This document shows, one piece after another, positions 1 to 15,935 of a stretch of 20,074 nucleotides of DNA. The first letter of the stretch is position 1, and every line of letters begins with the position of its first letter. The position numbers and the translations under genes are program-made. The stretch is from a virus. Lineage: Duplodnaviria; Heunggongvirae; Uroviricota; Caudoviricetes. Below the pieces are notes generated by a model, which did not search any database, was not told the origin of the DNA, and saw nothing but the letters and a program-made list of their open reading frames with translations. The stretch lies in the IMG/VR virus record IMGVR_UViG_2663763227_000012. One strand, written 5' to 3'.

Positions 1-57
1 TACCAATAACGGCGAGTAAGTAGTACGCATCTTACCTCTTTTTTAGAGATAACCATT

Positions 58-177
58 ATGACAATAGAAAAACACGAAAGAAGCACTAAGGATTTGGTGA
101 AAGCAGCAGTATCGGGATGGCTGGGCACTGCGCTTGAATTTTATGGATTTCAAGAGTCATGCGTGTTAACTATTTGA
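58..177 (+). pseudogene. Possible 5' fragment of a host transporter gene truncated at the prophage junction
   Basis: ATG at 58, 39 codons to TGA at 175-177 (MTIEKHERSTKDLVKAAVSGWLGTALEFYGFQESCVLTI). The GTALEFY segment resembles the N-terminal signature of MHS-type transporters, then the frame ends within a few codons. Below the 60-aa ORF-track cutoff; read by hand. Confidence 0.25.
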
Positions 178-188
178 TAAATATTAAA

Positions 189-1484
189 TTAATTTTTCAT
201 TGCTTCGTTATGGGGCATGGTTGGGGCAAACTCGCTTAACTGTGTATTTAACAAAGCTACCTGTGCATTATTGTTTTCAGACATCCATTTTCCGTATACC
301 TGAAATACCATTTGCGCATCTGCATGGCCCATCTGGTTTGCTATAAATGCCGGGTTAGCACCAGCTGTCAGCGACCAGCAGGCATAAGTATGTCTCGACT
401 GATATGATTTTCGATGGCGGAGTCCGGCACGTTTTATCGCTGCGTCCCACATCTGCCTTATTGAGTCAACGGTAAAATGGTCACCATAATTTTTTACTCT
501 CGCTGACACTTCAGGTTGAAAAACAAAGGTGCATTTTTGTTTTTCTGTTCTGCCATACTCTCTGAGGTGAACATCAATGATATGCTCTTTGCTCAGTCTC
601 GTTAATGTCATCTGACTCCGGAGAGCGTCGATTGCTGGCTTAATAAGATGAATGACCCGATTGGTTCCCGCCTGTGTTTTTGGTACCGTGAAACGGTCTT
701 TTGCTAAATTTCTCCTGATCATCATTGTTCCATTTTTCAGATCTATGTCCTCCCATCCAAGTGCACACAGCTCACCAGGGCGAACTCCAGTATAAACAGA
801 AACACACCATAAATTTTTTGCTTGCTGATTTCTGCACGCATCGATAAGACGGATAAATTCTTCCCGCGAAAGAGGATCCGGAATGGTTCTTGATTCCTTT
901 AATGGCGAGATCCCCTTAAACGGATTATCTGCCAGGTAACCGTTATCAACACCAAACTGGAACACGGCGTTAAGATTTGTCATGTAATTATTTACAGTTA
1001 CAGCCGATCTCCCTGGTTGTGTAACAATATAGTTACTTTTGGGGATCTGGTATCCAGTCAGTAACTCTTTACGAACCTCCAGTAATTTTTCTTTATTAAT
1101 CGATGAGGCAAGATTTTTTTCACCGATTATGCTCAGGATATTTTTGATGACGGCACGGTATGTGTTGAGTGATGTTTTGGCGACTTCAGTTTCTTTCAGT
1201 GCCAGAAATTTTTCAGCCAGTTCTTTTATGGTTAAATCTTGTCGGGCCTCACCAAATTTTTCCAGATTGCGTGAGGAGGGAAACTGTTTTGCATAGTCGA
1301 AAACACCAGTTTTTATTGCGTAACAAACAGAGGAGCGTAGTTCACCTGCAACGCGCCTGTTTTTTGCTGTGTCAGGAACCCCCAGATTTTCCCTGACTCT
1401 TACGTCTTTATAAACAAACCAGATACGTAATTTCCCTCCATGGTTTTCCACGCCTGTCGGATATTTCATTTCAACTTCTCTCAT
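189..1484 (-). CDS. int: Phage tyrosine integrase (site-specific recombinase)
   Basis: 431-aa ORF with a C-terminal catalytic region containing R..H..R..H..Y-type residues (LRHRKSYQSRHTYACW). Sits at the prophage edge next to an excisionase-like gene. Confidence 0.9.
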   Translation of the reverse strand: MREVEMKYPTGVENHGGKLRIWFVYKDVRVRENLGVPDTAKNRRVAGELRSSVCYAIKTGVFDYAKQFPSSRNLEKFGEARQDLTIKELAEKFLALKETEVAKTSLNTYRAVIKNILSIIGEKNLASSINKEKLLEVRKELLTGYQIPKSNYIVTQPGRSAVTVNNYMTNLNAVFQFGVDNGYLADNPFKGISPLKESRTIPDPLSREEFIRLIDACRNQQAKNLWCVSVYTGVRPGELCALGWEDIDLKNGTMMIRRNLAKDRFTVPKTQAGTNRVIHLIKPAIDALRSQMTLTRLSKEHIIDVHLREYGRTEKQKCTFVFQPEVSARVKNYGDHFTVDSIRQMWDAAIKRAGLRHRKSYQSRHTYACWSLTAGANPAFIANQMGHADAQMVFQVYGKWMSENNNAQVALLNTQLSEFAPTMPHNEAMKN

Positions 1485-1503
1485 TAGTTAGTGTGGTTTT
1501 TAG

Positions 1504-1755
1504 TCAAGTAAGATGACGTCTTGGTCTCGCTGATGCCTGGCGCTCAATCCAGCGATCAATTTCTTCCAGGTTGTAAAAGCATGGACTGTTATCCCATGGC
1601 ATACCGTCATGAGCGACATGCTTATATTCCCTTCCTTCCATAAACGATTTTTCCCGGGCCTTTTTTAACGTACCTTTTTTTATTCCTTTCAGCGCAATTA
1701 ACTGCTCTTCGGATACCCATTTGCCGGGAGAGACAATCATGATTACTTCGCTCAT
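1504..1755 (-). CDS. xis: Excisionase-like small DNA-binding protein
   Basis: 83-aa basic ORF immediately upstream of int on the same strand, the usual lambdoid xis position. Start codon uncertain (alternative internal Met). Confidence 0.55.
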   Translation of the reverse strand: MSEVIMIVSPGKWVSEEQLIALKGIKKGTLKKAREKSFMEGREYKHVAHDGMPWDNSPCFYNLEEIDRWIERQASARPRRHLT

Positions 1756-1827
1756 CGATTTCTTTATCTCTTACATCAGACGAGCGCCGGTTGCAGAATA
1801 CCAGTCACAACCGGCGACAGTTGAACA

Positions 1828-4299
1828 TTAAGAATCAGCCTGACTCGGGATCAGTTTTTGCCAGATAACTGAAACGTATTTTGCCTGGTAACGGGCGTCA
1901 TCAAGTGCATTATGGCGCTCACCTTCGAATGGAATAGCCGTTCTGGCATCGAAGTCTATGGCTTTCCCCAGCTCAACGATTGTGCGTACATCGCGATCGT
2001 TGTAGTAACGCCACGGGCAGGGGATCCCCTGCCGTTCGTATGAACGGCGCAAAATCGTGTTGTCGAAGTTGGCTCCATTTCCCCAAACCTGAACAAAAAA
2101 TTCACCGGAGTTTTCGTCGATAAATTCTCGCAATTGTAACAGTGCATCATCTAACGGGATTTCATCGGTCATAATGGCAGATTGCGCTTCGCGTGATTGC
2201 TTAAGCCACCATTTAATGGTGTCCCGATCAATGACTCCGCCAGCAGTTTCCAGATCGATAGTCTTACTAAATTCCGGTCCCATATCTCCGGTTTGCGGAT
2301 CGAAAAATATTGCACCTATTGAGATGATCGGGGCATCAGGATTTTTTCCCATGGTTTCAAGGTCGATCATTAGATGGTCACACGTCCTGCTGGTGGATGT
2401 GATTTCGTGATGACCGTTCACCTTAATTGGGTGATCTGCCGTCTCGCCAGTTTCATTATCGCTATTGTGATGCTGATTGCCGCCAGTGTTCTCCTTGTGT
2501 GGATGTTCAGCGCCTTCCATTTCCTCCGGATCATCTTCCTGAACTTCAACCTGATACTCTTCATCGAATGTTTCTTGGTATGTTGCGTCGCCCATCACCG
2601 CGCCACAATCAGGGCAGTTGCCGCCGCCGGTCTGACCGCAGGCGGTGCAGACTTTTTCCACTTCCTGTTGCGCTACTGGTTCAGGCTGTTTCGTTTCTGG
2701 CTCGTTTTGTAACGCATTTGGACTGTTTTGTTCCGCTTTTTGGTAGTTCCGTTCCGATTCATGCTGGTTCTGGTTCACAGAATCGCGGGTCTGGAGCCCC
2801 TTAACCCATTTCGGATCATTCGGGTCACTAATCCCTTCAACAAATTCACCACGTGATGCAGCAAGCAACTTATCGGCGTCAGGCTGGCTGATATTGGCTG
2901 CCTGCATAATTTTGTTTACTTCGTCAGCGGTAACTTTTATCGGCTCTGGTTGTTCTGAATCTTCAGCGGTATCTACATTTTGCGGTAAGCCCGTGTATGT
3001 GCCATTTTTTCGGGCAAAATATTCTTCTTTTGTGATTTCAGTGGCGCCAGCAGCCAGTGCCTTATCCAGACCAGAGAGTTTGTTTGCGCGACCGTATTTT
3101 TCTCCGTCCTTATCTGCGAAGAGGAAATAGAACGGCCCCTCACGCTCTACAGATGGTTCAGCTTCCGGCGCGGTTTCATTTTTTGGGATATCAGATACCT
3201 CAGTTTCCACTGCATCAGTTTGTGTTTCTGATGACTGGAGAACATCAACAGTGCCCAGGTCTGTTTCTTCATTCTCAAACACGCCCTTTGTCGTCAGGTA
3301 TTCGCAGATATATTTGTTCAGTGCTACGGGATCTTTGTGAATGTCGATCGGACGCTCACGGACAAGGCCAAAAATAGTTTGGCGGTCGTAGCGAAGGGCA
3401 TCAGGCTGTTTGCGCATTGATGCCGAGATACGCTTCCAGTCTTCGCGGTCGTTGTCGATAACTTCTTTTTTTGCCCAGCGATGGATGCTGCCGTCAATGT
3501 TTCCGGCATCCACATCACTAGGCCAGAGAGCGTAGGCCAGTTCGTCATCCAGTGTTTTCCATGTCTGCTTGTATTCGCGATGAATGGCAGCAATGACCGG
3601 GCTGATTTTTCCTGTTGAATTTTCAGTGTACTGTTGATTGGCTCTGGCGCGGGCGAGATCAACAACAGACGTGTATTTTCCGGTTTCCTTGCGTTCACCT
3701 TCGCGACGTTTTTTCCAGATGCGCATCTCTGCCTGAATTTCGGGCCATTTGGCACCAGGCTTACATTTATGCTTAACCCACCCGATGGCATGCAGCTTAA
3801 GCTCCGGATACATGGCGTTAACTTCTGGCATTTTCATCAACGCTTCAACGATATGTCCGTCGAATGTTGCCATGTCTTCCTGCAACAATTCCTGCGCGCT
3901 AATCACCATATCAACGGTGATGTTTTCACATGTGTCGAACTTAACCATGACAGCGTTCTGTACTTCAGGGGCCAGCTTGTCAAAAGTGACGTTCATCGGA
4001 TCGGATTCAGTCTCAACCGGGACAAAAGAAGCAGACTCCTCATCCCAGCGGTTTTCCTGCATATATTCAGCATCCCATGAATCGAGGGCAGGGCGGGGTA
4101 TGCCAGGTTTATCCTCGCAGACAATAAATTTATAAGCGCAGTCCTGAGCAGCCGGATAATGTTCCAGGAATTGCCAGTGAAATTTTGCTCGAGCACGGCG
4201 TTCGTCGCCAGCTTCAATGGCTGTGGCTACAGCCACAGCGCCTTCTTCCCTTGTTGCCAGTTCGTCAGGAATAGCGGCGCAAATAAAGACTTTACTCAT
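1828..4299 (-). CDS. Large prophage protein with C-terminal DnaQ-like DEDDh 3'-5' exonuclease domain and a CxxC-x7-CxxC zinc ribbon
   Basis: ORF 1828..4335 (track starts at a TTG); I prefer the ATG at 4299 (MSKVFICAAIPDE...), which has a GAGG about 10 nt upstream. Exo I (MIDLETMG), Exo II (VWGNGANFD) and Exo III (HNALDDARY) motifs lie in the last ~185 aa (nt ~1831-2390). Zinc ribbon VCTACGQTGGGNCPDCG at nt ~2599-2655. N-terminus resembles the K-12 Qin ydfE fragment from memory. Confidence 0.75.
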   Translation of the reverse strand: MSKVFICAAIPDELATREEGAVAVATAIEAGDERRARAKFHWQFLEHYPAAQDCAYKFIVCEDKPGIPRPALDSWDAEYMQENRWDEESASFVPVETESDPMNVTFDKLAPEVQNAVMVKFDTCENITVDMVISAQELLQEDMATFDGHIVEALMKMPEVNAMYPELKLHAIGWVKHKCKPGAKWPEIQAEMRIWKKRREGERKETGKYTSVVDLARARANQQYTENSTGKISPVIAAIHREYKQTWKTLDDELAYALWPSDVDAGNIDGSIHRWAKKEVIDNDREDWKRISASMRKQPDALRYDRQTIFGLVRERPIDIHKDPVALNKYICEYLTTKGVFENEETDLGTVDVLQSSETQTDAVETEVSDIPKNETAPEAEPSVEREGPFYFLFADKDGEKYGRANKLSGLDKALAAGATEITKEEYFARKNGTYTGLPQNVDTAEDSEQPEPIKVTADEVNKIMQAANISQPDADKLLAASRGEFVEGISDPNDPKWVKGLQTRDSVNQNQHESERNYQKAEQNSPNALQNEPETKQPEPVAQQEVEKVCTACGQTGGGNCPDCGAVMGDATYQETFDEEYQVEVQEDDPEEMEGAEHPHKENTGGNQHHNSDNETGETADHPIKVNGHHEITSTSRTCDHLMIDLETMGKNPDAPIISIGAIFFDPQTGDMGPEFSKTIDLETAGGVIDRDTIKWWLKQSREAQSAIMTDEIPLDDALLQLREFIDENSGEFFVQVWGNGANFDNTILRRSYERQGIPCPWRYYNDRDVRTIVELGKAIDFDARTAIPFEGERHNALDDARYQAKYVSVIWQKLIPSQADS

Positions 4300-4391
4300 T
4301 TGTTTTAACCTCATGACAGATTTAAGGATGAACAAATCCCTGCCATTGTTGGCATATAAGAATGAAACCGGATATTTATTACGGAACTGTT

Positions 4392-4583
4392 TTAAAGACC
4401 TGCCGGGATTTCGATATTATCCTGGTGAATAACTTTATCGACCGGGTAACAGTTACCGGGAATTTTCTGTTCGGTTGCTGCAGTCATACACTCCTGCATT
4501 GTCCTGTGAACACTGACTGCAATATCAACTGGCTCTCCGGAAACAAGAAAAACTGTCAGAACAAGCACAAATGCTGAATTCAT
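4392..4583 (-). CDS. ydfD: YdfD-like small secreted/membrane lysis protein
   Basis: 63 aa from internal Met (MNSAFVLVLTVFLVSGEPVD...), hydrophobic N-terminus. Overlaps the dicB stop by 4 nt; matches Qin YdfD as recalled. Confidence 0.8.
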   Translation of the reverse strand: MNSAFVLVLTVFLVSGEPVDIAVSVHRTMQECMTAATEQKIPGNCYPVDKVIHQDNIEIPAGL

Positions 4584-4768
4584 TGTGCACATCCTTTTGG
4601 CATCAGACGTAAACGAGCCAGCATTGAAACAATGCATATTTTATTTAATAGCTCCCGTTCTTGTTTTCTCTTGTTAATGGCATCTTCAGTAAATACTGGG
4701 TTACTGATAGTGACACCAATTTCAAAACAACCTTCAGACGTATTAACGTTTGGTAATAACGTTTTCAT
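4580..4768 (-). CDS. dicB: Cell-division inhibitor DicB
   Basis: 62 aa from internal Met of the 97-aa ORF (MKTLLPNVNTSEGCFEIGVTISNPVFTEDAINKRKQERELLNKICIVSMLARLRLMPKGCAQ). Sequence and position match DicB. Confidence 0.85.
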   Translation of the reverse strand: MKTLLPNVNTSEGCFEIGVTISNPVFTEDAINKRKQERELLNKICIVSMLARLRLMPKGCAQ

Positions 4769-4937
4769 TATCGCGTCCTCAACAATGAATTTTGTGATGC
4801 AGTGCCTGGTGCCTCCAGGTGACGTTAACCAGTTAACAATTAACGCCGGATACAGAGAATCCACCCATAACACTGTTTTTGGTTTTAACTGTTCCGCGTG
4901 CGCTTAGCCGCATTCACTGCATCACAAAATTCACTTT

Positions 4938-4995
4938 AAAAAGGGCGGCAGAGCAGTCACGGAGTAAAACTGATACCGCCAAACGTCACCAGAAA
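4938..4995 (-). ncRNA. dicF: DicF small regulatory RNA (ftsZ-targeting sRNA)
   Basis: Reverse complement of 4938-4995 reads TTTCTGGTGACGTTTGGCGGTATCAGTTTTACTCCGTGACTGCTCTGCCGCCCTTTTT, the DicF sequence with its terminal GC stem and U-tail. Lies between ydfC and dicB as in Qin. Confidence 0.85.
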
Positions 4996-5335
4996 ATTGA
5001 TAACAGAGGGCGTTGCAGCGGGGTTGTCACTTAAGCGTATGGTCAACCTGACAACCCGGTGTCCTCAACGGGGAAGGAATAACCCCGCCATACTTACCGC
5101 CGCGCCATTTCGCGGGTTGCCACAACCGGAAGCGCACGGTCGACGAAAATTTAACGACAGGCTATCTATGAACCAGCTACCTCGCCGTGCGCTTTCGCGT
5201 TATGGTCTGACTTTTCAGGGAAATATCCTTTCAGTAAACTGTCAGTTCCGGATGCGCACCCGTGTCCGGCGCACGCACTCCACCTCACCCGTGGAGAACT
5301 CCTTAATTACTAACCTTAGCTTTGTTGATTAGCTA

Positions 5336-5554
5336 CTAACGCGGGTATGTAATCATTCTGGCAATGCTTAATGCCGCTGCTTTTTCCAGATTGGTGATAT
5401 CCTGCTCCAGAGCGGACAGATTTTCAGCCTGCTTAGCCCTGGCTTCATTGGCCCATTTCAGATCCTGCGCTGCATTAATTTTCTGGCGCATCCACTCATA
5501 AAGTTCATCATCGGTATAGTCTGGCGCGATGATGACGGGTTCTCGTTTCTGCAT
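5336..5554 (-). CDS. ydfC: YdfC-like small protein of the dicB operon
   Basis: 72-aa ORF (MQKREPVIIAPDYTDDELYEWMRQKINAAQDLKWANEARAK...), same strand and order as the Qin dicB operon. Confidence 0.75.
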   Translation of the reverse strand: MQKREPVIIAPDYTDDELYEWMRQKINAAQDLKWANEARAKQAENLSALEQDITNLEKAAALSIARMITYPR

Positions 5555-5583
5555 ACTGATTCCTCGCGGTGCTGTTTCGCTTA

Positions 5584-5712
5584 TCAGCCGTTAGATTTTG
5601 CCGAACTGGAAAGCGCCTGTTTAAACTCACTGAAGCTGAGAGCTTCTTCGCCTTCGGCAAGGCCTTCGAAGTATTCTTCGTAAGCCTTTTCCATGATTGT
5701 GTCGAAATCCAT
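5584..5712 (-). CDS. ydfB: YdfB-like small acidic protein
   Basis: Hand-translated 42-aa ORF (MDFDTIMEKAYEEYFEGLAEGEEALSFSEFKQALSSSAKSNG), below the track cutoff. The track ORFs 5508..5717 and 5569..5766 overlap it in other frames. Confidence 0.7.
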   Translation of the reverse strand: MDFDTIMEKAYEEYFEGLAEGEEALSFSEFKQALSSSAKSNG

Positions 5713-5713
5713 A

Positions 5714-5869
5714 TCACTCACCTGAGTTTCTTTCCAGCCAGCGACGGGCACCATTTTCGGTTTTAAACGTTTTGCTTTTGGTATACGTCATTGCGGTGAA
5801 CGTGCCGTCCTGGTTTGGAAACACGCCGTACACCAGAGATTCGTTGTTGCCAAGATCGATAGTATCCAT
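5714..5869 (-). CDS. ydfA: YdfA-like small protein
   Basis: 51 aa from internal Met of ORF 5714..5947 (MDTIDLGNNESLVYGVFPNQDGTFTAMTYTKSKTFKTENGARRWLERNSGE). First gene after the promoter region downstream of dicA. Confidence 0.7.
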   Translation of the reverse strand: MDTIDLGNNESLVYGVFPNQDGTFTAMTYTKSKTFKTENGARRWLERNSGE

Positions 5870-5949
5870 GCTGACCTCATTTCCCCTTAACGCTGGGGTA
5901 GCGGAACTGTTTGCTGAGAACACCGTGCGGTGTGTTGATGCAAACAAGA

Positions 5950-6035
5950 TTAGCCATGACTAACATATCGGTCAAGTGATTTTGTATGCTATAGCTAACA
6001 TAATTGATGTGGTAAAAGATAACTCATTGATGATG
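5950..6035 (-). promoter_or_regulatory. Candidate promoter/operator region of the dicB operon
   Basis: Intergenic between the dicA stop (6036) and the ydfA start (5869). Contains TGACTAACAT (5957-5966) and TAGCTAACAT (5992-6001), related to the palindromes in the dicA-dicC intergenic region, plus a hairpin AGATAAC-N11-GTTATCT (6017-6041) overlapping the dicA stop. Confidence 0.35.
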
Positions 6036-6443
6036 TTATCTTTTATTTGTCCGCTGACGGGCTTTTAGTAATTCTTCAAAGAGTTTATTGAAGTTTTTTA
6101 CTCGAGCTCGCATTTCGGCGAGCTGGGTATCCTGTTCTGATTCTGGCAGTGCATTAAACAGCTCAAGGAGCTCTAGTTCTTTGGGGGATAAGGCAACTGG
6201 CTTCTCAACAGGTGGTGTTGGTTGCTTGTCTTCATCGCCAAATAGAATCCATGTTGGTGAGCATTGCAATACTTTGCTGAGGGCAAAAAGGTTCTTCCCT
6301 GTAGGTTCACTATCACCCCGTTCCCATTGTGATACAGACACATGGGAGATTTTCAGGGCTTTAGCAAGAGACCTTTGGGTGTGTTTGAGGTTTTTCCGAC
6401 GATACCTGATGCGTTCGCCGATAGTTAAATTTTTTGTTTCCAT
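6036..6443 (-). CDS. dicA: Prophage repressor DicA (HTH_XRE, c2/cI-like)
   Basis: 135-aa ORF (METKNLTIGERIRYRRKNLKHTQRSLAKALKISHVSVSQWERGDSEPT...) with an N-terminal HTH, divergent from dicC. Confidence 0.9.
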   Translation of the reverse strand: METKNLTIGERIRYRRKNLKHTQRSLAKALKISHVSVSQWERGDSEPTGKNLFALSKVLQCSPTWILFGDEDKQPTPPVEKPVALSPKELELLELFNALPESEQDTQLAEMRARVKNFNKLFEELLKARQRTNKR

Positions 6444-6526
6444 AGTTAGCTAATGCTAAATCGTATTGACTATGTTTTTGTTAACATCTATCTTGTTAGT
6501 TATGACTAACAATAAAGGTGTTTTAA
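6444..6526. promoter_or_regulatory. Divergent dicA/dicC promoter-operator region
   Basis: 83-bp intergenic region with palindrome TTAGCTAA (6446-6453) and a perfect 8-bp inverted repeat TTGTTAGT-tatg-ACTAACAA (6493-6512), plus a TTGACT hexamer near 6469. Confidence 0.55.
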
Positions 6527-6757
6527 ATGCTTAAAACTGACGCTCTTTTGTATTTCGGTTCAAAAACAAAACTTGCACAAGCAGCAGGTATTCGTTTGGC
6601 TTCGCTTTATAGCTGGAAAGGGGATTTAGTTCCCGAAGGTCGCGCGATGCGTCTACAGGAGGCATCTGGCGGGGAGCTTCAGTATGATCCCAAAGTTTAT
6701 GATGAATATCGTAAGACGAAGCGGGCGGGGCGGTTGAACAATGAAAATCACTCCTGA
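6527..6757 (+). CDS. dicC: Cro-like regulator DicC
   Basis: 76-aa ORF (MLKTDALLYFGSKTKLAQAAGIRLASLYSWKGDLVPEGRAMRLQEASGGELQYDPKVYDEYRKTKRAGRLNNENHS), divergent from dicA. Confidence 0.85.
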   Translation: MLKTDALLYFGSKTKLAQAAGIRLASLYSWKGDLVPEGRAMRLQEASGGELQYDPKVYDEYRKTKRAGRLNNENHS

Positions 6758-7262
6758 ACAGGCTCGTGAGGCTCTGGATGCCTGGATATGTCGACCAGGA
6801 ATGACACAGGAGCAGGCGACGATATTAATCACTGAAGCATTCTGGGCTTTGAAAGAGCGCCCGAACATCGATGTTCAGCGTGTCACATATGAAGGTGGCG
6901 CGATTGATCAGCGAGCGCTTGGCGTTAATCGAGTGAAGATATTTGAACGCTGGAAGGCTATCGACACCAGGGATAAGCGTGAAAAGTTCACGGCGCTAGT
7001 GCCTGCAATTATGGAGGCTATCCGGATTAATGATTTCAGGTTGTATCGTGAAATTACTGACGGAAAAAGCATCACGTGCATGATCGCCGGGTTAAACAAA
7101 GAATATGGCGATGTGGTGGAGTCCGGACTGCTTTTTGCTGATCCTGCCGTAGTGGATCGTGAAACTGACGAACTTATAGAAAAAGCAATTGCTTTCAAAC
7201 TTGCGTATCGACAGCAATACCAACAAAAAGCTGGATGGAATTATGAGCCTTCTTTTTGCTGA
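6741..7262 (+). CDS. YdaT-like early protein (CII-position regulator family)
   Basis: 173-aa ORF overlapping the dicC 3' end. The central segment (ERWKAIDTRDKREKFTALVPAIMEAI) resembles the conserved core of Rac YdaT as recalled. Confidence 0.6.
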   Translation: MKITPEQAREALDAWICRPGMTQEQATILITEAFWALKERPNIDVQRVTYEGGAIDQRALGVNRVKIFERWKAIDTRDKREKFTALVPAIMEAIRINDFRLYREITDGKSITCMIAGLNKEYGDVVESGLLFADPAVVDRETDELIEKAIAFKLAYRQQYQQKAGWNYEPSFC

Positions 7263-8208
7263 ACGCCCACTGGTTATAAACACGCAGCTGGCAATGAAAA
7301 TTGGCTTAAACGAAGCCATTGTTTTGCAACAACTGCACTACTGGTTGAGAGATACCAACTCCGGCATGGAATGTGATGGTGTTCGCTGGATTTATAACAC
7401 AACGGAACAATGGCTGGAACAGTTCCCATTCTGGTCAGAGTCAACGTTAAAGCGCGCGTTTGCAAGTCTGAAAACGCTGGGGCTTTTGCGTTGTGAAAAG
7501 CTCAATAAATCAAAGCGCGATATGACCAATTTCTACACGATCAACTATGGGAGCGAGCTTTTAGATGGTGGCAAATTGAGCGAATCCATCGGTTCAAAAT
7601 GCGCCGCTCCATCAGGTCAAAATGACACGATGGAAGAGGTCAAAATGAAACGCTCCATTGGTTCAAAACGACCCAATGTCATCGGGTCAAAATGGCCTGA
7701 TGATCTTACAGAGAATACAACAGAGATTACTACAGAGAATAAAAACACTTTTCGTCCGGAAGCTTCGCAACCGGACCCGCAGACGACTGAACAGGATTTT
7801 TTAACCCGGAACTCCGACGCGGTTGTGTTTAGTGCGAAAAAACGCCAGTGGGGTAGCAGGGAGGATTTGGCGTGTGCGCAGTGGATCTGGGGGCGGATCG
7901 TGGGTCTCTACGAACAGGCAGCCAGTGATGATGGCGAGATCATGCGACCAAAAGAGCCTAACTGGACTGCCTGGGCCAATGACGTGCGCACAATGCGGAT
8001 GCTGGATGGCAGAAGCCACAGACAAATTTGCGAAATGTTTGGTCGGGTTCAGCGAGATCCATTCTGGGTAAAAAACATCATGAGCCCGTCAAAGCTCCGC
8101 GAAAAATGGGACGAACTGGTCATCCGCCTGGGACGTTCACCTGTACAGCGTTGTGTTAATCATATTTCTGAACCGGATACAGAAATTCCGCCTGGTTTCA
8201 GAGGATAA
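7243..8208 (+). CDS. Phage replication initiator / replisome-organizer-like protein (O-like)
   Basis: ORF 7189..8208; I prefer the ATG at 7243 (MSLLFAERPLVINTQLAMKIGLNEAIVLQQLHYWLRD...), which gives a winged-helix-like N-terminal domain. Internal iteron array and position after the cro/cII-like genes support an initiator role. Confidence 0.6.
   Translation: MSLLFAERPLVINTQLAMKIGLNEAIVLQQLHYWLRDTNSGMECDGVRWIYNTTEQWLEQFPFWSESTLKRAFASLKTLGLLRCEKLNKSKRDMTNFYTINYGSELLDGGKLSESIGSKCAAPSGQNDTMEEVKMKRSIGSKRPNVIGSKWPDDLTENTTEITTENKNTFRPEASQPDPQTTEQDFLTRNSDAVVFSAKKRQWGSREDLACAQWIWGRIVGLYEQAASDDGEIMRPKEPNWTAWANDVRTMRMLDGRSHRQICEMFGRVQRDPFWVKNIMSPSKLREKWDELVIRLGRSPVQRCVNHISEPDTEIPPGFRG
7588..7694 (+). 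repeat. Five direct iteron-like repeats (consensus ~ATCGGGTCAAAATG) at ~23-bp spacing, candidate ori
   Basis: Copies at 7588-7601, 7611-7624, 7636-7647, 7657-7670 and 7681-7694 inside the initiator gene (seen as repeated IGSK in the protein). Confidence 0.55.
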
Positions 8209-8248
8209 GTGTTGATTTCAGGTCATGAGGTAATTTTAAGGGGGACTT

Positions 8249-8671
8249 GTGGCAAAAGTTTTTACACAAGAAGAGCGGGAAAAAATTAAATGGCAGGTGG
8301 TGGAACTCGTGCGCCAGAGCGGCCGTGAGACGTTACGGCAACTGGAAGCTAAAACAGGTGCGACTAGATATCTGATGAGCGTTCTTGCCAGAGAGCTGGT
8401 AGCCAGTGGCGATGTATACAACTCCGGCTACGGGTTATTCCCCTCTGAACAGGCGCGTAAGGACTGGCAAAACGCCCGCAAAAAACTCTCGAGGGCAAAG
8501 GTGAAGAAACCTGCTGTGGTTGATCCGGACCTTATCTGGTCATCACCTGACGGAGAAATACGTCGCTACGACAGTCGCCTAAACATAATCTGTCGCGAGT
8601 GCCGGAAGAGCGAAGTTATGCAGCGCATACTGGCTTTCTATCAGGGTAATTTTCAGGACGTGGCGCAGTGA
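8249..8671 (+). CDS. Hypothetical prophage protein, possible HTH
   Basis: 140-aa ORF with GTG start at 8249 preceded by GGGGG. Segment ETLRQLEAKTGATRYLMSVLARELV looks HTH-like. Stop overlaps the next gene's GTG start (GTGA at 8668-8671). Confidence 0.5.
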   Translation: MAKVFTQEEREKIKWQVVELVRQSGRETLRQLEAKTGATRYLMSVLARELVASGDVYNSGYGLFPSEQARKDWQNARKKLSRAKVKKPAVVDPDLIWSSPDGEIRRYDSRLNIICRECRKSEVMQRILAFYQGNFQDVAQ

Positions 8672-9024
8672 GTGCACCGGCAACCATTCTTGATATGTGC
8701 TGTGGCAGCCGCATGTTCTGGTTCGATAAGTCTGACGAACGGGCGATATTCAGCGATATCAGAAAAGAAGGATACACATTACGCAATGGGAGACGCTTGA
8801 TTATCAGCCCTGACATTATCGCAGATTTTCGTGCATTATCATTTGCAGACGCATCTTTTTCGATGGTTGTATTAGACCCTCCGCATCTTGAGAGTGTTGG
8901 TGATAACGCCTGGATGGGAAAGAAATATGGACGGCTGAATAAAGATGCCTGGCGTGATGATTCGCGACAGAGATTTAAAGAAGCCTTTCGGGTGTTGAGG
9001 CCGCACGGCGTTCTGATTTTTTAA
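8668..9024 (+). CDS. N6-adenine DNA methyltransferase-like protein, short and probably truncated
   Basis: 118 aa with SAM motif I-like DMCCGS and motif IV DPPH (VVLDPPHL), plus a RVLRPHGVLIF strand typical of class I MTases. Too short for a complete MTase fold; the frame stays open 30 codons past the TAA at 9022-9024. Confidence 0.55.
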   Translation: MSAPATILDMCCGSRMFWFDKSDERAIFSDIRKEGYTLRNGRRLIISPDIIADFRALSFADASFSMVVLDPPHLESVGDNAWMGKKYGRLNKDAWRDDSRQRFKEAFRVLRPHGVLIF

Positions 9025-10137
9025 TGGAATGAAACGCAAATACCGGTAAGCCAGATTCTGGCACTGACAGACAGAAAACCTGTTATCTGTCAACGAACAG
9101 GGAAAAAACGATAAAACCCACTGGATTATTTTTATGAAAGAGGCATCCAGTGAGTAGATTCGTAAGGCTACAGATACGTATATCTGAATAATTAAATTCA
9201 GTTCTGTAAATAAAATTTAATCCTTAACCGGATGGATTTCTGCACCCTCAGAACATCAGGAGGCCGCCCGAAAGGGCGGTAGTGAAATGCGAAAGTTCAA
9301 AATTATTATTGAAACGGGAATAGCTGGTGGAGATTTTGAGGATGTATTCGAAGTGGACGATGACGCAACACCTGAGGAAATTCATGACGGAGCATAAGAA
9401 ATTTTCTTTAACTACTGCAATTACTCATACCACGAAATAAAAGACGATGAGGAAGAACAAAGTGGCTGATTTTTGTTCAGCTAAATATAACATCAGTTTT
9501 GAAGAGCGGGATGAACTATTAATGGACTATGGTGAGTTACGCGGTGGAAGTGCTGCTGATGTCGAATCCTAGCGTGATGACTATGAAGCGGGAAAAACTC
9601 CGGTCGAAGCATATTGTGATGAGTGGGGCGATGAATGAGCGAGATTAATTATCAGGAAGGGCATGAAACGGCGGGGCAAGCAAAACCAGTGGCATGGCGA
9701 TATCGCTACGTGAAAAAAGGCGTTACGGACTTTCAGGGGAAGTAGTGGTCTGGTGACTGGAAATATGTACCGAAAAAAGAGGATTGTAACGACAGGCCGA
9801 ACTATCAAATTCAGGCCTTATTCACTGCCTCACCAGTCCCAGTTACATCAGAAGAACTGGTTAAAGCTGTGCACTTTTATGAACAACTAAAACGCGAAAA
9901 TCCACCAACATCCGGCAACTAGATTAATGGATTAACTATGTCGGTTAAACGACCAGCCAACTGAAAAAGCGGAAACCTGATTACAGGTTGCCAGATAAGG
10001 CAATGAGCTACCTGGCGCGGAACGGACTGATAAGTATGGGGAATGTTTTACGATGAACCTTTAGACTAAAGAGTTTGTAACGCTATGTAAGTGATTTTTT
10101 CTGGTTTAGATATTTATATGTCCGGCCAAATTGAGGT
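9025..10137. other. AT-rich decayed accessory segment with several gene-like frames each broken by an in-frame stop
   Basis: 9288-9470 (MRKFKIIIETGIAGGDFEDVFEVDDDATPEEIHDGA-TAA-EIFFNYCNYSYHEIKDDEEEQSG), 9490-9637 (in-frame TAG at 9569-9571) and 9635-9921 (MSEINYQEGHETAGQAKPVAWRYRYVKKGVTDFQGK-TAG-WSGDWKYVPKKEDC...). No ORF over 60 aa on the plus strand. Confidence 0.4.
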
Positions 10138-10176
10138 GTGTTTAAATGTAATTGCACATTGATTGTAGGAGGAATA

Positions 10177-10356
10177 ATGAAAAACGCATTGCAGTTTTTG
10201 TTTGTTGCGTTCTGGTTGTTCGCATCATGTATGCCCATCATCTTCACAGCAAGGTATATGGAAAAAGTTGATGTTTTGATATTAATATTTGGATATATAA
10301 ATGCCCTTTTTTTAGGGGTGTTCATGGCGGTCATGTGCATTGAATACTGGCGGTAA
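10177..10356 (+). CDS. Small hydrophobic (predicted two-TM) membrane protein
   Basis: 59 aa from ATG 10177 (MKNALQFLFVAFWLFASCMPIIFTARYMEKVDVLILIFGYINALFLGVFMAVMCIEYWR) with canonical AGGAGG 5 nt upstream. Lies in an AT-rich island. Confidence 0.45.
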   Translation: MKNALQFLFVAFWLFASCMPIIFTARYMEKVDVLILIFGYINALFLGVFMAVMCIEYWR

Positions 10357-10690
10357 ATACAGCGAACTCCATTGGTTTAGTTGGATATTTACTGTGCTGG
10401 ACAAAAACGGTTTGCGGGGAAATCTTAGTTAAGTAGAATGACTGCGGGTGCTTGAGGCTATCTGCCTCGGGCATGGACACCAACGGCAGATAGAGAAAAG
10501 CCCCAGTTAACATTACGCGTCCTGCAAGACGCTTAACATTAATCTGAGGCCAATTTCATGCTAGACACATGTAGGTTAGCCTCTTACGTGCCGAAAGGCA
10601 CGGAGAAGCAGGCTATTGTTAACACCAAGCTGTAATGTCCCCTTTGAACCATTCTAAAATGTCCCCAGACAATTCTCTGGGGGATTTTTC

Positions 10691-12004
10691 ATGATCAAAG
10701 AGACTGTTACGATGAGTCATAAGGAACTCCACCGACTTCAGATTATTCAGGAACAAGCTGCGGCACGCATTGGCATTTCTATTCGGCAGGTTAAACGTCT
10801 GGTGCAACGGTATAGAAATGAAGGGCCTTCTGGTCTGGTTTCCCACCGACGTGGAAAGCGTCCTAATAATTCCTTTTCTACTGAATTCAGAGCAACAGTA
10901 ATTTCACTCCTCAAAGGCCGTTACGCTGATTTTGGACCTACGTTTGCGTGCGAAAAATTGCGCGAGATACACGGTTTATCTTTATCCGTTGAAACTCTCA
11001 GAAAGTGGATGATAGAAGAGGGGTTATGGCGTGAACGCCGTCGTAAAATTGCCCGTATATATCAACGCCGCATGCGACGACCATCTTACGGTGAACTGAT
11101 CCAGATTGATGGCTCACCTCATGACTGGTTTGAAAATCGAGGCCCCAGATGTACACTGATCGTTTTCATTGATGATGCCACCAGTGCGTTGATGGCGTTG
11201 CGTTTTGTGCCTGCTGAAACAACCCGGGCTTACATGGAAACCCTCCGGGGTTACCTTAATGATCATGGCGTACCGCTCGCTCTCTACTCTGATAGACACA
11301 GTATATTCAGGGTAAATAACCCAGAGCGGGAAGGTGAGCTGACCCAGTTCACTCGTGCGATAAAGACACTGGGCATCGAGCCAATCCATGCCAACAGCCC
11401 GCAGGCAAAAGGGCGGGTAGAGCGCGCCAATCAGACACTACAGGACAGGCTGGTCAAAGAAATGCGGCTTCAGAATATCAGTGATATTGAAACAGCAAAT
11501 GCATGGTTGCCGACCTTTATTGAAGCCTATAACAACCGGTTCGCTACGTCGCCTCGTACTACTGATAATGCTCATCTTGATGTGCACCATTCTGAAGAGG
11601 AACTGGGTTATATCTTCAGCCTACAGGCGAAGCGCGTTCTGTCTAAAAATCTCACTTTCCAGTACAAAAGCAGTGCGTTTCAGGTACGCAGTGAGGGCCG
11701 GGGATATCGACTTAGGCATTCGGTTGTTACTGTATGCGAGAACTTTGACGGTGAAATTAACGTTCTGTATGACGGGAAAGCGCTGGGCTGGGAAAAGTAT
11801 GTTGATGGCCCGGAGCCTATACCACTGGATGATGAAAAGAGTGTCCATGAACGAGTGGATAATGCCCGTATTGATTTACGCTCAAAATACTATGTTAAAC
11901 CTAAAGCTGACCATCCCTGGCTTACGCGCCGAACGCAAAGTCATCAGCAAGTTAAGCCCCCGAAGTTACCTAAAAAGAAGCCTGATCCCGATAAAAAAGA
12001 TTGA
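10691..12004 (+). CDS. DDE transposase/integrase-core (rve) protein with N-terminal HTH, IS481/ISNCY-like
   Basis: 437-aa ORF: N-terminal HTH (IGISIRQVKRLVQRY), then an rve-type catalytic core (IQIDGSPHDW...TLIVFIDDATS...GRVERANQTLQD) and a basic C-terminal tail. Element boundaries not resolved. Confidence 0.8.
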   Translation: MIKETVTMSHKELHRLQIIQEQAAARIGISIRQVKRLVQRYRNEGPSGLVSHRRGKRPNNSFSTEFRATVISLLKGRYADFGPTFACEKLREIHGLSLSVETLRKWMIEEGLWRERRRKIARIYQRRMRRPSYGELIQIDGSPHDWFENRGPRCTLIVFIDDATSALMALRFVPAETTRAYMETLRGYLNDHGVPLALYSDRHSIFRVNNPEREGELTQFTRAIKTLGIEPIHANSPQAKGRVERANQTLQDRLVKEMRLQNISDIETANAWLPTFIEAYNNRFATSPRTTDNAHLDVHHSEEELGYIFSLQAKRVLSKNLTFQYKSSAFQVRSEGRGYRLRHSVVTVCENFDGEINVLYDGKALGWEKYVDGPEPIPLDDEKSVHERVDNARIDLRSKYYVKPKADHPWLTRRTQSHQQVKPPKLPKKKPDPDKKD

Positions 12005-12399
12005 AACCAAGATCGATTCGGTTGAGTGCATATCCATTCATAGGGTAGATTCTTAAGTCGCGTTTCTGGTGTTCATTTTCGGGTGGTTTGTTACTTGTTT
12101 TACCGGGGATATGCCAGAAACGCGCTGAGTCAGTCTGGGCGGTGCGCGTAATGAGGCGTTATGGTAAATAGCCTATGCTAATGTCCGCTAAGAGCAAGAA
12201 GCGGAAGTTGGCAGTTTTGTGGACTGTCCCCACAAAAGTGACTACAGAAATAGTTGCAATTCATAATTGATCATGGGTTGTCAGTTAAACTCGTGGCGAT
12301 TTAAATAGACTAATTGGGAGTGCGTCCATTACTTATATCTTGTAATGTTAACTATCAGAAATGATACAAAGATAATATGTCTTTAAAGAAAAGGCTGAT

Positions 12400-12427
12400 G
12401 GCGAAAAGTGGCCCGATGAGGGCCACA
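12400..12427 (-). terminator. Intrinsic terminator downstream of flxA
   Basis: Hairpin GTGGCCC-gatgag-GGCCAC (12408-12426) followed on the minus strand by a T-run. Confidence 0.5.
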
Positions 12428-12440
12428 ATACGGCTGTCAC

Positions 12441-12773
12441 TTAGACGTAAATATCAATGGTGCCAGCGGTATTTGTATCGTCTTTTTTCTCTTCTTTTTT
12501 ATCAGGCTGAACTGTCGCGTCTTCATTCTTTTTCTCTGCCTGCTGCCTTAACAACTGCTCCAGTTGAGCCCAGAGGCTTTCAATTTGCTTTTGTACCAAT
12601 GCAGCCATTTCTTTTTTCTGCTGTGTCGTCATCCCCTCTTCCGATGAGATTTTCCCAAGCTTTTCAGTCAGCACCTGAATTTGTCTTGTGATTTTGGCTA
12701 TTTCTGATGTTCCTTCCGGGGCGGAGTTGTTTGAAATAACGGTTGAGGTATTTCCCTGAATTGTGACAGACAT
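12441..12773 (-). CDS. flxA: FlxA (sigma-28-dependent Qin prophage protein)
   Basis: 110-aa ORF (MSVTIQGNTSTVISNNSAPEGTSEIAKITRQIQVLTEKLGKISSEEGMTTQQKKEMAALVQKQIESLWAQLEQLL...) matching FlxA as recalled. Confidence 0.85.
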   Translation of the reverse strand: MSVTIQGNTSTVISNNSAPEGTSEIAKITRQIQVLTEKLGKISSEEGMTTQQKKEMAALVQKQIESLWAQLEQLLRQQAEKKNEDATVQPDKKEEKKDDTNTAGTIDIYV

Positions 12774-12796
12774 AGATTTCTCCTTTTAAAAAAACA

Positions 12797-12824
12797 CTAT
12801 CGGCATGCACAAAAAAATCTTTAA
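12797..12824 (-). promoter_or_regulatory. Sigma-28 (FliA) class-3 promoter for flxA
   Basis: Minus strand reads TTAAAG-N15-GCCGATA (-35 at 12819-12824, -10 at 12798-12804), close to the FliA consensus TAAA-N15-GCCGATAA, about 25 nt upstream of the flxA start. Confidence 0.6.
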
Positions 12825-12975
12825 TCGTATTTCTTGTGTCATTAATTGTTTGATGTTCAGATTGTTTTCCTCGCGGGCTGGCGCGCCTCAGAAAGTAAAG
12901 CTTGTTGACAGGGGTAAACGTTCGGCAATAATTTTCTGCCGCATGCGGGTGTTGCATAAAACGTGTTACGTTCCT

Positions 12976-13281
12976 TTATCGACAGGTCAGGTCACCGCTC
13001 ACCCGCCGACGAGAAAGCAACACTGACATGCTAAAGCAAAAAATAGATGAATAAGTTGAGTTGTGCATATGTAGCCTGACCGTCACAAAGTATATGGTGT
13101 CTGTACCAGTAAGATGATGGCCGGACTCTTTAAAAACGAGCTGACCTGCACAATACAGGATGGACTTAGCAATGGCTGCTCCTGGCACAAAGCGGACAGT
13201 GATCACCGTTCTTACGACTACTTTCTGACTTCCTTCGTGACTTGCCCTAAGCATGTTGTAGTGCGATACTTGTAATGACAT
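12976..13281 (-). CDS. ydfV: YdfV-like hypothetical protein
   Basis: 101-aa ORF between flxA and relB, same position and length as Qin ydfV. Unusual composition, so it may not be a real protein. Confidence 0.45.
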   Translation of the reverse strand: MSLQVSHYNMLRASHEGSQKVVVRTVITVRFVPGAAIAKSILYCAGQLVFKESGHHLTGTDTIYFVTVRLHMHNSTYSSIFCFSMSVLLSRRRVSGDLTCR

Positions 13282-13294
13282 TTGTAATTACAAG
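13269..13294 (+). promoter_or_regulatory. relO-like operator in the relBE promoter
   Basis: CTTGTAAT-gacat-TTGTAATTACAAG: inverted and direct TTGTAAT hexads immediately upstream of the relB start. Confidence 0.6.
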
Positions 13295-13305
13295 AGGTGT
13301 AAGAC

Positions 13306-13545
13306 ATGGGTAGCATTAACCTGCGTATTGACGATGAACTTAAAGCGCGTTCTTACGCCGCGCTTGAAAAAATGGGTGTAACTCCTTCTGAAGCGCTTCG
13401 TCTCATGCTCGAGTATATCGCTGACAATGAACGCTTGCCGTTCAAACAGACACTCCTGAGTGATGAAGATGCTGAACTTGTGGAGGTAGTGAAAGAACGG
13501 CTTCGTAATCCTAAGCCAGTACGTGTGACGCTGGATGAACTCTGA
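13306..13545 (+). CDS. relB: RelB antitoxin
   Basis: 79-aa ORF (MGSINLRIDDELKARSYAALEKMGVTPSEALRLMLEYIADNERLPFKQTLLSDEDAELVEVVKERLRNPKPVRVTLDEL), near-identical to E. coli RelB as recalled. Confidence 0.9.
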   Translation: MGSINLRIDDELKARSYAALEKMGVTPSEALRLMLEYIADNERLPFKQTLLSDEDAELVEVVKERLRNPKPVRVTLDEL

Positions 13546-13832
13546 TGGCGTATTTTCTGGATTTTGACGAGCGGGCACTAAAGGAATGGCGAAAGCTGGG
13601 CTCGACGGTACGTGAACAGTTGAAAAAGAAGCTGGTTGAAGTACTTGAGTCACCCCGGATTGAAGCAAACAAGCTCCGTGGTATGCCTGATTGTTACAAG
13701 ATTAAGCTCCGGTCTTCAGGCTATCGCCTTGTATACCAGGTTATAGACGAGAAAGTTGTCGTTTTCGTGATTTCTGTTGGGAAAAGAGAACGCTCGGAAG
13801 TATATAGCGAGGCGGTCAAACGCATTCTCTGA
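13545..13832 (+). CDS. relE: RelE toxin (ribosome-dependent mRNA interferase)
   Basis: 95-aa ORF (MAYFLDFDERALKEWRKLGSTVREQLKKKLVEVLESPRIEANKLRGMPDCYKIKLRSSGYRLVYQVIDEKVVVFVISVGKRERSEVYSEAVKRIL). Start overlaps the relB stop (ATGA). Confidence 0.9.
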   Translation: MAYFLDFDERALKEWRKLGSTVREQLKKKLVEVLESPRIEANKLRGMPDCYKIKLRSSGYRLVYQVIDEKVVVFVISVGKRERSEVYSEAVKRIL

Positions 13833-13903
13833 ACCAAAGCATGACATCTCTGTTTCGCACCGAAGGTGACACTTCTGCTTTGCGTTGACAGGAGAAGCAG
13901 GCT

Positions 13904-14059
13904 ATGAAGCAGCAAAAGGCGATGTTAATCGCCCTGATCGTCATCTGTTTAACCGTCATAGTGACGGCACTGGTAACGAGGAAAGACCTCTGCGAGGTAC
14001 GAATCCGAACCGGCCAGACGGAGGTCGCTGTCTTCACAGCTTACGAACCTGAGGAGTAA
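13904..14059 (+). CDS. hokD: Hok-family membrane toxin HokD (RelF)
   Basis: Hand-translated 51-aa ORF (MKQQKAMLIALIVICLTVIVTALVTRKDLCEVRIRTGQTEVAVFTAYEPEE), below the track cutoff. GGAGAAG RBS; third gene after relBE. Confidence 0.85.
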   Translation: MKQQKAMLIALIVICLTVIVTALVTRKDLCEVRIRTGQTEVAVFTAYEPEE

Positions 14060-14127
14060 GAGACCCGGCGGGGGAGAAATCCCTCGCCACCTCTGATGTG
14101 GCAGGCATCCTCAACGCACCCGCACTT

Positions 14128-14158
14128 AACCCGCTTCGGCGGGTTTTTGTTTTTATTT
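14128..14158 (+). terminator. Rho-independent terminator after hokD
   Basis: CCCGC-ttcg-GCGGG stem (14130-14143) followed by TTTTTGTTTTTATTTT. Confidence 0.7.
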
Positions 14159-14275
14159 TCAACGCGTTTGAAGTTCTGGACGGTGCCGGAATAGAATCAA
14201 AAATACTTAAGTAGCGCGCAGGGATAAGAGGGATGGTCCCTTAAAGGGGAGAGCTAATTATCCGGAAGGATTCTG

Positions 14276-14527
14276 ATGATGAACATCGAAGAACTGCGTA
14301 AAATTTTTTGTGAAGATGGCCTCTATGCTGTGTGCGTTGAAAATGGAAATCTTGTTAGTCATTACCGCATTATGTGTTTGCGAAAGAATGGGGCTGCGTT
14401 AATTAATTTTGTGGATGCTCGGGTCACGGACGGATTTATCTTGCGCGAAGGTGAGTTTGTCACTTCATTACAGGCATTGAAAGAGATCGGAATAAAAGCT
14501 GGCTTTTCTGCTTTTTCAGGAGAATAA
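14276..14527 (+). CDS. rem: Rem-like small prophage protein
   Basis: 83-aa ORF (MMNIEELRKIFCEDGLYAVCVENGNLVSHYRIMCLRKNGAALINFVDARVTDGF...), matching Qin Rem in length and position after hokD. Confidence 0.6.
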   Translation: MMNIEELRKIFCEDGLYAVCVENGNLVSHYRIMCLRKNGAALINFVDARVTDGFILREGEFVTSLQALKEIGIKAGFSAFSGE

Positions 14528-14593
14528 ACTCATCTACAATCTTGCGCGGGGCTGAACTCCCGCTGAGTAACACCGTGCCACCGGAGAAAACCG

Positions 14594-14872
14594 ATGGCAC
14601 GCAACGCAAAATATTACAATTCTGATAATTCGCCCGTTCTTGCCTGCACGCACGGGCGGTATTCTCACGCATTCAAGTCTGAATGGTTCCAGCACCCTCC
14701 ATGCACTGCAGAACAGGCCGAATGGCTGATTCATTCTTACCGCAGGCGCGGGTTCGAGGTTAAGAAAGCTCTCAGTCTCGACTATCGGCACTGGATAATC
14801 TCTGTCAGGCTGCCTTATTCCGAACGCCCACCACGTGCGTCCCGCACTTTCCAGCAACGGATCTGGAGGTAA
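14594..14872 (+). CDS. Hypothetical protein (Cys/His-containing)
   Basis: 92-aa ORF with GGAG RBS before ATG 14594. Its stop (14870-14872) lies 1 nt before the GTG start of the DUF968-like gene. Confidence 0.5.
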   Translation: MARNAKYYNSDNSPVLACTHGRYSHAFKSEWFQHPPCTAEQAEWLIHSYRRRGFEVKKALSLDYRHWIISVRLPYSERPPRASRTFQQRIWR

Positions 14873-14873
14873 C

Positions 14874-15875
14874 GTGCGGGTATTACTTAGACCTGTTCTG
14901 GTGCCTGAGCTTGGGCTGGTGGTCCTTAAGCCGGGCCGTGAATCCATACAGATATTTCATAATCCTCGAGTGCTGGTGGAACCGGAACCAAAAAGCATGC
15001 GTAATCTGCCATCCGGAGTCGTTCCTGCCGTTCGCCAGCCGCTGGCGGAAGACAAAACATTGCTGCCGTTTTTTAGTAACGAACGGGTGATTCGTGCTGC
15101 TGGCGGCGTTGGCGCATTGTCCGACTGGCTATTACGTCATGTTACATCCTGCCAGTGGCCTAATGGCGATTACCATCACACTGAAACAGTCATTCACCGT
15201 TATGGTACCGGCGCAATGGTGTTGTGCTGGCACTGCGACAACCAACTGCGTGACCAGACATCGGAATCACTGGAGCTGCTTGCTCAACAAAATCTGACAG
15301 CATGGGTGATTGACGTCATCCGTCACGCAATAAGCGGTACGCAGGAGCGGGAATTATCTTTGGCTGAATTATCCTGGTGGGCGGTCTGCAATCAGGTGGT
15401 GGATGCACTACCTGAGGCTGTATCGCGTCGTTCGCTGGGATTACCAGCGGAAAAAATCTGCTCGGTGTACCGCGAAAGCGACATCGTACCGGGAGAGCAG
15501 ACCGCCACCAGCATATTGAAACAACGCACAAAAAATCTTGCACCGTTGCCTTACGCCCACCAGCAACAAAAATCACCACAGGAAAAGACGGTGGTAAGCA
15601 TCACCGTTGATCCAGAGTCTCCGGAATCTTTCATGAAGCTGCCTAAACGTCGCCGCTGGGTTAAGGAGAAATACACACGTTGGGTTAAGACACAGCCGTG
15701 TGCTTGCTGCGGTATGCCAGCCGACGATCCGCATCATCTGATTGGTCACGGGCAGGGCGGAATGGGAACAAAAGCACATGATCTCTTTGTGTTGCCTTTG
15801 TGCAGAAAGCATCACAACGAGCTGCATACGGATACAGTGGCATTTGAAGATAAGTATGGCTCCCAACTGGACTGA
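14874..15875 (+). CDS. ydfU: DUF968/YdfU-like protein with C-terminal HNH-like Cys/His motif
   Basis: ORF 14835..15875 in the track; I prefer the GTG at 14874 because GGAGG sits 4 nt upstream. C-terminus CACCGMPADDPHHLIGHGQGGMGTKAHDLFVLPLCRKHHNELH is HNH-nuclease-like. Confidence 0.65.
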   Translation: MRVLLRPVLVPELGLVVLKPGRESIQIFHNPRVLVEPEPKSMRNLPSGVVPAVRQPLAEDKTLLPFFSNERVIRAAGGVGALSDWLLRHVTSCQWPNGDYHHTETVIHRYGTGAMVLCWHCDNQLRDQTSESLELLAQQNLTAWVIDVIRHAISGTQERELSLAELSWWAVCNQVVDALPEAVSRRSLGLPAEKICSVYRESDIVPGEQTATSILKQRTKNLAPLPYAHQQQKSPQEKTVVSITVDPESPESFMKLPKRRRWVKEKYTRWVKTQPCACCGMPADDPHHLIGHGQGGMGTKAHDLFVLPLCRKHHNELHTDTVAFEDKYGSQLD

Positions 15876-15935
15876 TATTTCGTTTTATCGATCGCGCGCT
15901 GGCAATTGGCGTACTGGCGTAAGTGGAGAACGAGC

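Follow-up and report, generated by a model that had tools for sequence, protein, structure and literature searches.

We report that the first 188 bases of the stretch of DNA analysed here (IMG/VR record IMGVR_UViG_2663763227_000012, 20,074 nucleotides, hereafter the window) are almost certainly the attL site of a Qin-type lambdoid prophage, known as PPydfJ in the literature on STEC, that is site-specifically integrated in the Escherichia coli gene ydfJ. The Qin/ydfJ junction as such is already described and ordinary: according to an earlier paper, site-specific integration of Qin into the 5′ end of ydfJ cost the gene its promoter and 28 N-terminal codons (PMC6379469).

In the mechanism that we propose, a lambda-type tyrosine integrase would have exchanged strands inside TTATGGATTTC, which is common to the phage attP and to codons 28-31 of ydfJ. 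The gene would have been split by this event into a promoter-proximal part of 28 codons, which has stayed beside rspB and runs into phage DNA as a short chimeric ORF (ynfP in K-12), and a remainder of 427 codons, starting from the ATG of the core, which would lie at attR beyond the window and would have no promoter of its own. The features that were located are collected in Table 1.

Table 1. Features of the attL region, of the adjoining prophage DNA and of the four att sites. Positions refer to the window unless another sequence is named; a dot marks features to which no strand was assigned.
Feature	Position	Strand	Basis or remark
Spacer between rspB stop codon and ydfJ start codon, host DNA	1-57	+	Identity with EC16 locus 3001-3057
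ydfJ 5′ end, host DNA, codons 1 to ~31, severed from the remainder	58-151	+	Alignment with intact ydfJ
Chimeric host-phage remnant ORF, ATG start, 39 codons, MTIEKHERSTKDLVKAAVSGWLGTALEFYGFQESCVLTI	58-177	+	Homologue of K-12 ynfP
T-run with one extra T (TTTT), +1 frameshift of the remnant	139-142	+	Alignments
att common core TTATGGATTTC, 11 bp, perfect in attB, attP, attL and attR	141-151	.	Five-way and six-way alignments
P′ arm of attL, phage DNA, overlaps int 3′ end	152-230	.	Near-identical to attP of mEp460_ev081 and HannyBb
Putative IHF site, TATCAAATAGTTA against consensus WATCAANNNNTTR, at the lambda H′ position	167-179	-	Read from sequence
Two TGGGGCA copies 11 bp apart, candidate arm-type Int sites (P′1/P′2-like)	211-217, 222-228	+	Motif repeats
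Tyrosine integrase gene, 426 aa from annotated start	189-1469	-	Pfam; RefSeq 'site-specific integrase'
Excisionase gene, 83 aa	1504-1755	-	DUF1233 'putative excisionase', 1.6e-31; RefSeq 'excisionase family protein'
Exonuclease ORF, open, 835 aa from TTG start	1828-4335	-	RefSeq annotates 823 aa in O55:H7
DicF small RNA	4943-4994	-	Rfam RF00039, 76.7 bits
sok antitoxin RNA match	10446-10617	+	RF01794, 104 bits
437-aa ORF adjoining the sok match	10691-12004	+	
cspA-type thermoregulator 5′ UTR, upstream of prophage cold-shock gene cspB	17462-17854	+	RF01766, 158.8 bits
Hairpin followed by UUUUU, P arm of mEp460; equivalent at attR, outside the window	2208-2245 of the mEp460 stretch	-	Folding z-score
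attB (EC16), gcgcttgaatTTATGGATTTCcagttatattc			
attP (mEp460, HannyBb), cacctgtgaaTTATGGATTTCaagagtcat			
attL (O55:H7, K-12), gcgcttgaatTTATGGATTTCaagagtcat			
attR (O55:H7, K-12), cacctgtgaaTTATGGATTTCcagttatattc			

Host DNA at the left end of the window

A reading made earlier from the sequence only had placed a prophage-host junction in bases 1-188, had taken a coding sequence rather than a tRNA for the target, and had proposed a BLAST of these bases against E. coli genomes. Megablast against 5426 complete E. coli genomes returned two kinds of match. The first kind covers all 188 bases, with no annotated gene beneath it, and the second covers only bases 1-151 or 1-154 and lies inside a gene annotated as 'ydfJ: MHS family MFS transporter YdfJ'. 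Free phages match from base 141 rightwards only.

In EC16 the genes are arranged in the order rspA, rspB, ydfJ (1368 nt, 455 aa) and ydfI; rspB ends at position 3000 of the locus and ydfJ starts at 3058, which puts base 1 of the window directly after the rspB stop codon and base 58 at the start of ydfJ. When aligned, the window and EC16 are identical through base 151, save for one extra T, and are unrelated beyond it. The supposed integration into a coding sequence was thus supported, with ydfJ as the target: uninterrupted ydfJ loci match bases 1-151 and then diverge completely. The first 140 bases are host DNA, contrary to the possibility that all 188 were derived from a phage. A tRNA as integration target was rejected, in agreement with the sequence-only reading, by an ARAGORN scan that found neither a tRNA nor a tmRNA in the whole 20 kb. 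A promoter and terminator scan of bases 1-600 yielded nothing above chance, and an Rfam scan of bases 1-188 gave no match.

The att core and the four att sites

The core had been expected around 150-190, but it actually lies at 141-151, off by about one core length, and 152-190 is P′-arm DNA. It spans codons 28-31 of ydfJ (codons 28-32 of the remnant ORF) and contains the ATG of YdfJ Met29. Scattered identities flank the core on both sides, and with a gap of one base in the T-run the likeness reaches left to TGAATT. The attP of the free phages (...CACCTGTGAATTATGGATTTCAAGAGTCAT...) equals the left arm of attR, the core and the right arm of attL joined together, and the sequence CAGTTATATTCGC... 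is ydfJ from codon 32 onwards.

Strand exchange must occur within the 11-bp core. The core region of attP forms a dyad, TGAATT-ATGG-ATTTCA, and its centre at ATGG points to TATGGAT as the stretch that probably contains the overlap region. The length of the T-run is not the same in attP as in attB, so this run would lie outside the overlap.

The window has a single copy of the core, the one starting at 141, and a search that allowed three mismatches did not find in it the 30 bases of ydfJ that come next; attR therefore lies outside the window. The matching attR that was to be looked for at the other prophage end was found at the far end of the prophages of the related genomes O55:H7 USDA5905 and K-12, where the remainder of ydfJ is 47.5 kb and 20 kb away, respectively.

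Within the 3′ coding region of int, the 21-mer ACCTGTGCATTATTGTTTTCA at 259-279 is identical at 18 of 21 positions to the attP core region ACCTGTGAATTATGGATTTCA, which is 127 bp away. The chance of such a likeness in the region was roughly estimated at ~0.01, and the 21-mer could represent a pseudo-core or a further Int site, or the likeness could be coincidental.

The remnant ORF and its counterpart ynfP

The sequence-only reading had described a 39-codon ORF at 58-177 that begins like an MHS-family transporter and ends about 10 bp from the int stop codon. This ORF exists, starts with ATG and encodes 39 aa, and 11 bases (178-188) separate its stop codon from that of int. Its homology to a transporter is genuine and is that of the true N-terminus of ydfJ: residues 1-27 are identical to the N-terminus of the intact YdfJ of EC16, and by BLASTP 30 of the first 32 residues are identical to YdfJ (E=1e-18). 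Codons 1-27 are thus those of YdfJ, the T-run then shifts the frame, and phage DNA provides the final 8 codons together with the stop codon. The protein encoded by an intact ydfJ has the Pfam domains MFS_1, which spans residues 21-344, and Sugar_tr. Taken by itself, the 39-aa ORF has no Pfam match; it represents a piece of an MHS-family member of the MFS, lacks the twelve-helix MFS domain and is no transporter.

In K-12 the corresponding ORF, ynfP (b4534), encodes 36 aa (MTIEKH...EFMDFKSHAC). With the extra T, the reading frame changes at codon 28, and the ORF in the window consequently comprises 39 codons rather than 36, and its tail reads YGFQESCVLTI instead of MDFKSHAC.

We consider it very unlikely that ORF 58-177 constitutes a genuine small-protein gene of the YnfP type, with a function of its own, and is more than debris of ydfJ. 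Its counterpart ynfP is annotated as a CDS in K-12, and a tagged version of YnfP was detected as a small protein in K-12 grown in rich medium (PMC6001520, Table 1), which means that the start region of ydfJ is still transcribed and translated. This detection, however, shows only that the translation start of ydfJ is still in use; a remnant that keeps an intact ribosome-binding site is expected to be translated, which is no evidence of function. Moreover, codons 1-27 or 1-28 are just the start of ydfJ, the tail is read from P′-arm DNA and is not conserved, as the frameshift in the window demonstrates, and the ORF is without a family in Pfam.

Consequences for ydfJ and the extra T

At attR, an in-frame TGA precedes the core ATG by two codons, and the phage therefore supplies no new N-terminus to YdfJ. 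The ORF at attR has the 427-aa form (MDFQLYSLGAAL...) that is annotated in K-12 (MDFQ...), without the first 28 residues and without its own upstream region. Because the MFS_1 match starts at residue 21, the truncation removes some of the first helix region, and we infer a loss of function of the truncated YdfJ. The integration of e14 and phage 21 in icd and of Rac in ttcA likewise has protein-coding genes, not tRNA genes, as targets (PMC6379469). Those elements bring along a replacement for the lost gene end, so that the host gene stays open, whereas ydfJ is truncated here without a substitute.

The T-run has the form TTTT in the window, TTT in attB and in nearly all copies of attL, and TT in attP and attR. 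Only 3 complete genomes (SCU-172, MSB1_4I and OZ547117) match window 105-188 exactly, compared with 2666 that carry the junction. The additional T, on the left border of the core, would stem from a later 1-bp expansion that shifted the frame of the remnant. In MSB1_4I, which shares the TTTT allele, no attR was detected within 50 kb; there, IS2 interrupts the prophage, and rearrangement has affected the region.

An arrangement of this kind could in principle act as a reversible switch ('active lysogeny'), in which regulated excision of the prophage restores ydfJ when substrate is available. The reading frames of int and xis are intact in the window, and ydfJ belongs to a cluster of the sugar-acid type (rspA, rspB, ydfI). 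Because the core is inside the coding sequence, precise excision restores ydfJ. Nevertheless, we regard such a switch as extremely improbable: there is no evidence of regulated excision, the prophage of K-12 is defective and permanently fixed, with intQ a pseudogene, and in the window the extra T to the left of the overlap would probably cause precise excision to give back a ydfJ with TTTT that is still frameshifted. If the switch were true, excision would restore the sugar-acid transporter of the rspAB-ydfJ-ydfI cluster, and the extra T would lock the off state here. When the claim is put as either a reversible ydfJ switch or a translated, chimeric YnfP-like micro-protein with an acquired function, we judge it highly unlikely. 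The preferred reading remains that of an attL left by site-specific integration, with ydfJ truncated.

Candidate Int and IHF sites and a hairpin across attP

The arm-type sites and the IHF site in the P′ arm are candidates that were deduced from motifs. The IHF consensus is WATCAANNNNTTR, and the match in the P′ arm is a putative site. The motif TGGGGCA has 3 exact copies in the 651 bp around the attP of mEp460, against 0.04 expected, a figure to be read with the post hoc choice of the motif in mind; likewise, 0 of 1000 shuffles reached 3 copies of a motif that was chosen after the repeats were seen. The P′-arm pair is positioned at +65 and +76 from the core centre, inside the last codons of int. 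In the P arm, a pair is located at -142 and -131 from the core centre, again 11 bp apart, of which the -131 copy reads TGGGACA (one mismatch), and an inverted copy with one mismatch is present at -118. These candidate repeats sit at positions that resemble those of P′1-3 and P1/P2 in phage lambda.

The likeness to lambda comprises the arm-binding N-terminal domain of Int, an xis gene that adjoins int, and an attP immediately downstream of int; it would extend to candidate arm repeats in both arms at lambda-like distances and to a putative IHF site that lies between the core and the P′-arm pair. The element differs from lambda in its core and in its target, the attB of lambda being intergenic between gal and bio, and its integrase belongs to another subfamily (Arm-DNA-bind_2).

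The free phage carries a hairpin of -20.7 kcal/mol (z=-4.1), followed by UUUUU, on the int strand ~250-290 bp past the core. Its topology, downstream of int across attP, is that of tI/sib in lambda, an element that becomes separated from int upon integration. The position of the hairpin suggests retroregulation of int, which integration would abolish.

Integrase, excisionase and further content of the prophage

The longest ORF of the integrase gene reaches 1484 (431 aa), and its stop codon is at 189-191. The protein matches Arm-DNA-bind_2 (PF12167; 3.8e-22) and Phage_integrase (PF00589; 4e-18), both above the gathering thresholds, and it aligns with the Int of Tn1549 over the catalytic domain, with the R..RH..GH..Y motifs (RHT, GH, Y) in register. 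A sequence search of the PDB with the integrase matched Tn1549 Int and Xer-type recombinases and did not match lambda Int; the kinship to lambda Int is therefore one of domain architecture only.

Because the exonuclease ORF is open, the early region is less decayed than that of Qin in K-12. In SCU-172 and MSB1_4I, IS2 interrupts the exonuclease gene, and K-12 keeps only the pseudogene ydfE. DicF, sok and the cspA 5′ UTR were the only Rfam matches in the window. DicF is situated within an immunity-type region with dicB/ydfD and dicA/dicC, as in Qin of K-12. Around the sok match and the 437-aa ORF, the O55:H7 prophage contains pseudogenes and a truncated ISNCY transposase, and this part of the early region looks like a zone of insertion or decay. 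Qin-type prophages bear several csp paralogues (cspB, cspF, cspI and ydfK).

Related prophages, free phages and prevalence of the junction

The prophage of O55:H7 USDA5905 matches window 1-19817 at 99.9%, and this match forms the left part of a complete lambdoid prophage of 47.5 kb. The latter encodes int, xis, the exonuclease gene, dicB/dicA/dicC, relBE and a Q-type antiterminator gene, followed by lysis, head and tail genes, pinQ and ydfK, and its far end adjoins a ydfJ whose annotation reads 'missing N-terminus'. The attL of Qin in K-12 (rspB - ynfP - intQ′, with ydfJ′ at the other end) has the same host flank, the same core, the same first phage bases and the same 3′ end of the integrase gene. 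It is identical to the window except for the length of the T-run, and the annotated boundary of Qin (1652745) corresponds to window 152. The two prophages differ in their state: Qin of K-12 is a 20-kb remnant whose intQ pseudogene is disrupted by IS2, whereas int, xis and the exonuclease gene are open in the window.

The free phages PhiR42_1, HannyBb, Tritos and mEp460_ev081 match window 141-1500 at 98.8-99.9%, and these matches begin exactly at 141. They have the same attP core and P′ arm, but their genomes are free and contain an intact attP, whereas the window contains the recombined attL.

The PPydfJ elements of STEC and EPEC are described as lambda-like prophages at ydfJ whose att was derived from attP, attB, attL and attR (PMC8112680), as was done here. 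According to the S7 Fig legend of that report (Nakamura et al. 2021, PLoS Pathog.), the att of PPydfJ was determined from an attP PCR product and is 18-19 bp long, compared with the 11 bp of perfect identity found here plus imperfect flanking identity. The PPydfJ prophages described there frequently contain T3SS effector loci and lie in tandem clusters; a cluster of this kind was not seen in the 20-kb window.

Fifteen records of Stx2a prophages within the range LC727844-LC727872 (Stx2a-converting phages) have at their ends ~340-1160 bp with 91-93% identity to window 140-479, and in one of these records the match extends to 1303. The matched part takes in the core, the P′ arm and a portion of int. 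These record ends may reflect recombination of Stx2a phages with prophages that occupy ydfJ, of the kind reported in PMC8112680.

The junction was counted with window 105-188 as query and the empty site with the 91-bp attB of EC16, each with at least 80% of the query covered. By these measures, the junction is present in 2666 of the 5426 complete E. coli genomes, and 2012 of the 5426 have the empty site with an uninterrupted ydfJ. The 4715 genomes that contain at least 80% of bases 1-188 were rejected as a count of lysogens because an intact ydfJ alone covers 80-82% of this query.

That ydfJ was cut by a deletion or an IS-mediated rearrangement abutting a prophage, rather than by Int-mediated integration, has next to no probability and is refuted by the set of attP, attB, attL and attR: the prophage region is IS-rich and rearranged in some strains (IS2 in SCU-172 and MSB1_4I), but the break falls on the same base in 2666 genomes, the second copy of the core is exactly where the missing part of ydfJ starts, the reciprocal attP is present in free phages, and bases 1-188 contain no IS.

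Implications

For the annotation of the element, which is the main gain, the left boundary of the prophage is set at window 152 with the core at 141-151, and the 39-codon ORF is to be regarded as a remnant of ydfJ and a homologue of ynfP, not as a gene that needs a name. The extra T is the sole strain-specific point, and it implies that ydfJ would be frameshifted even after precise excision. The family to which this element belongs is very common: in about half of the complete E. coli genomes, the site in ydfJ is occupied by a prophage or a prophage remnant.
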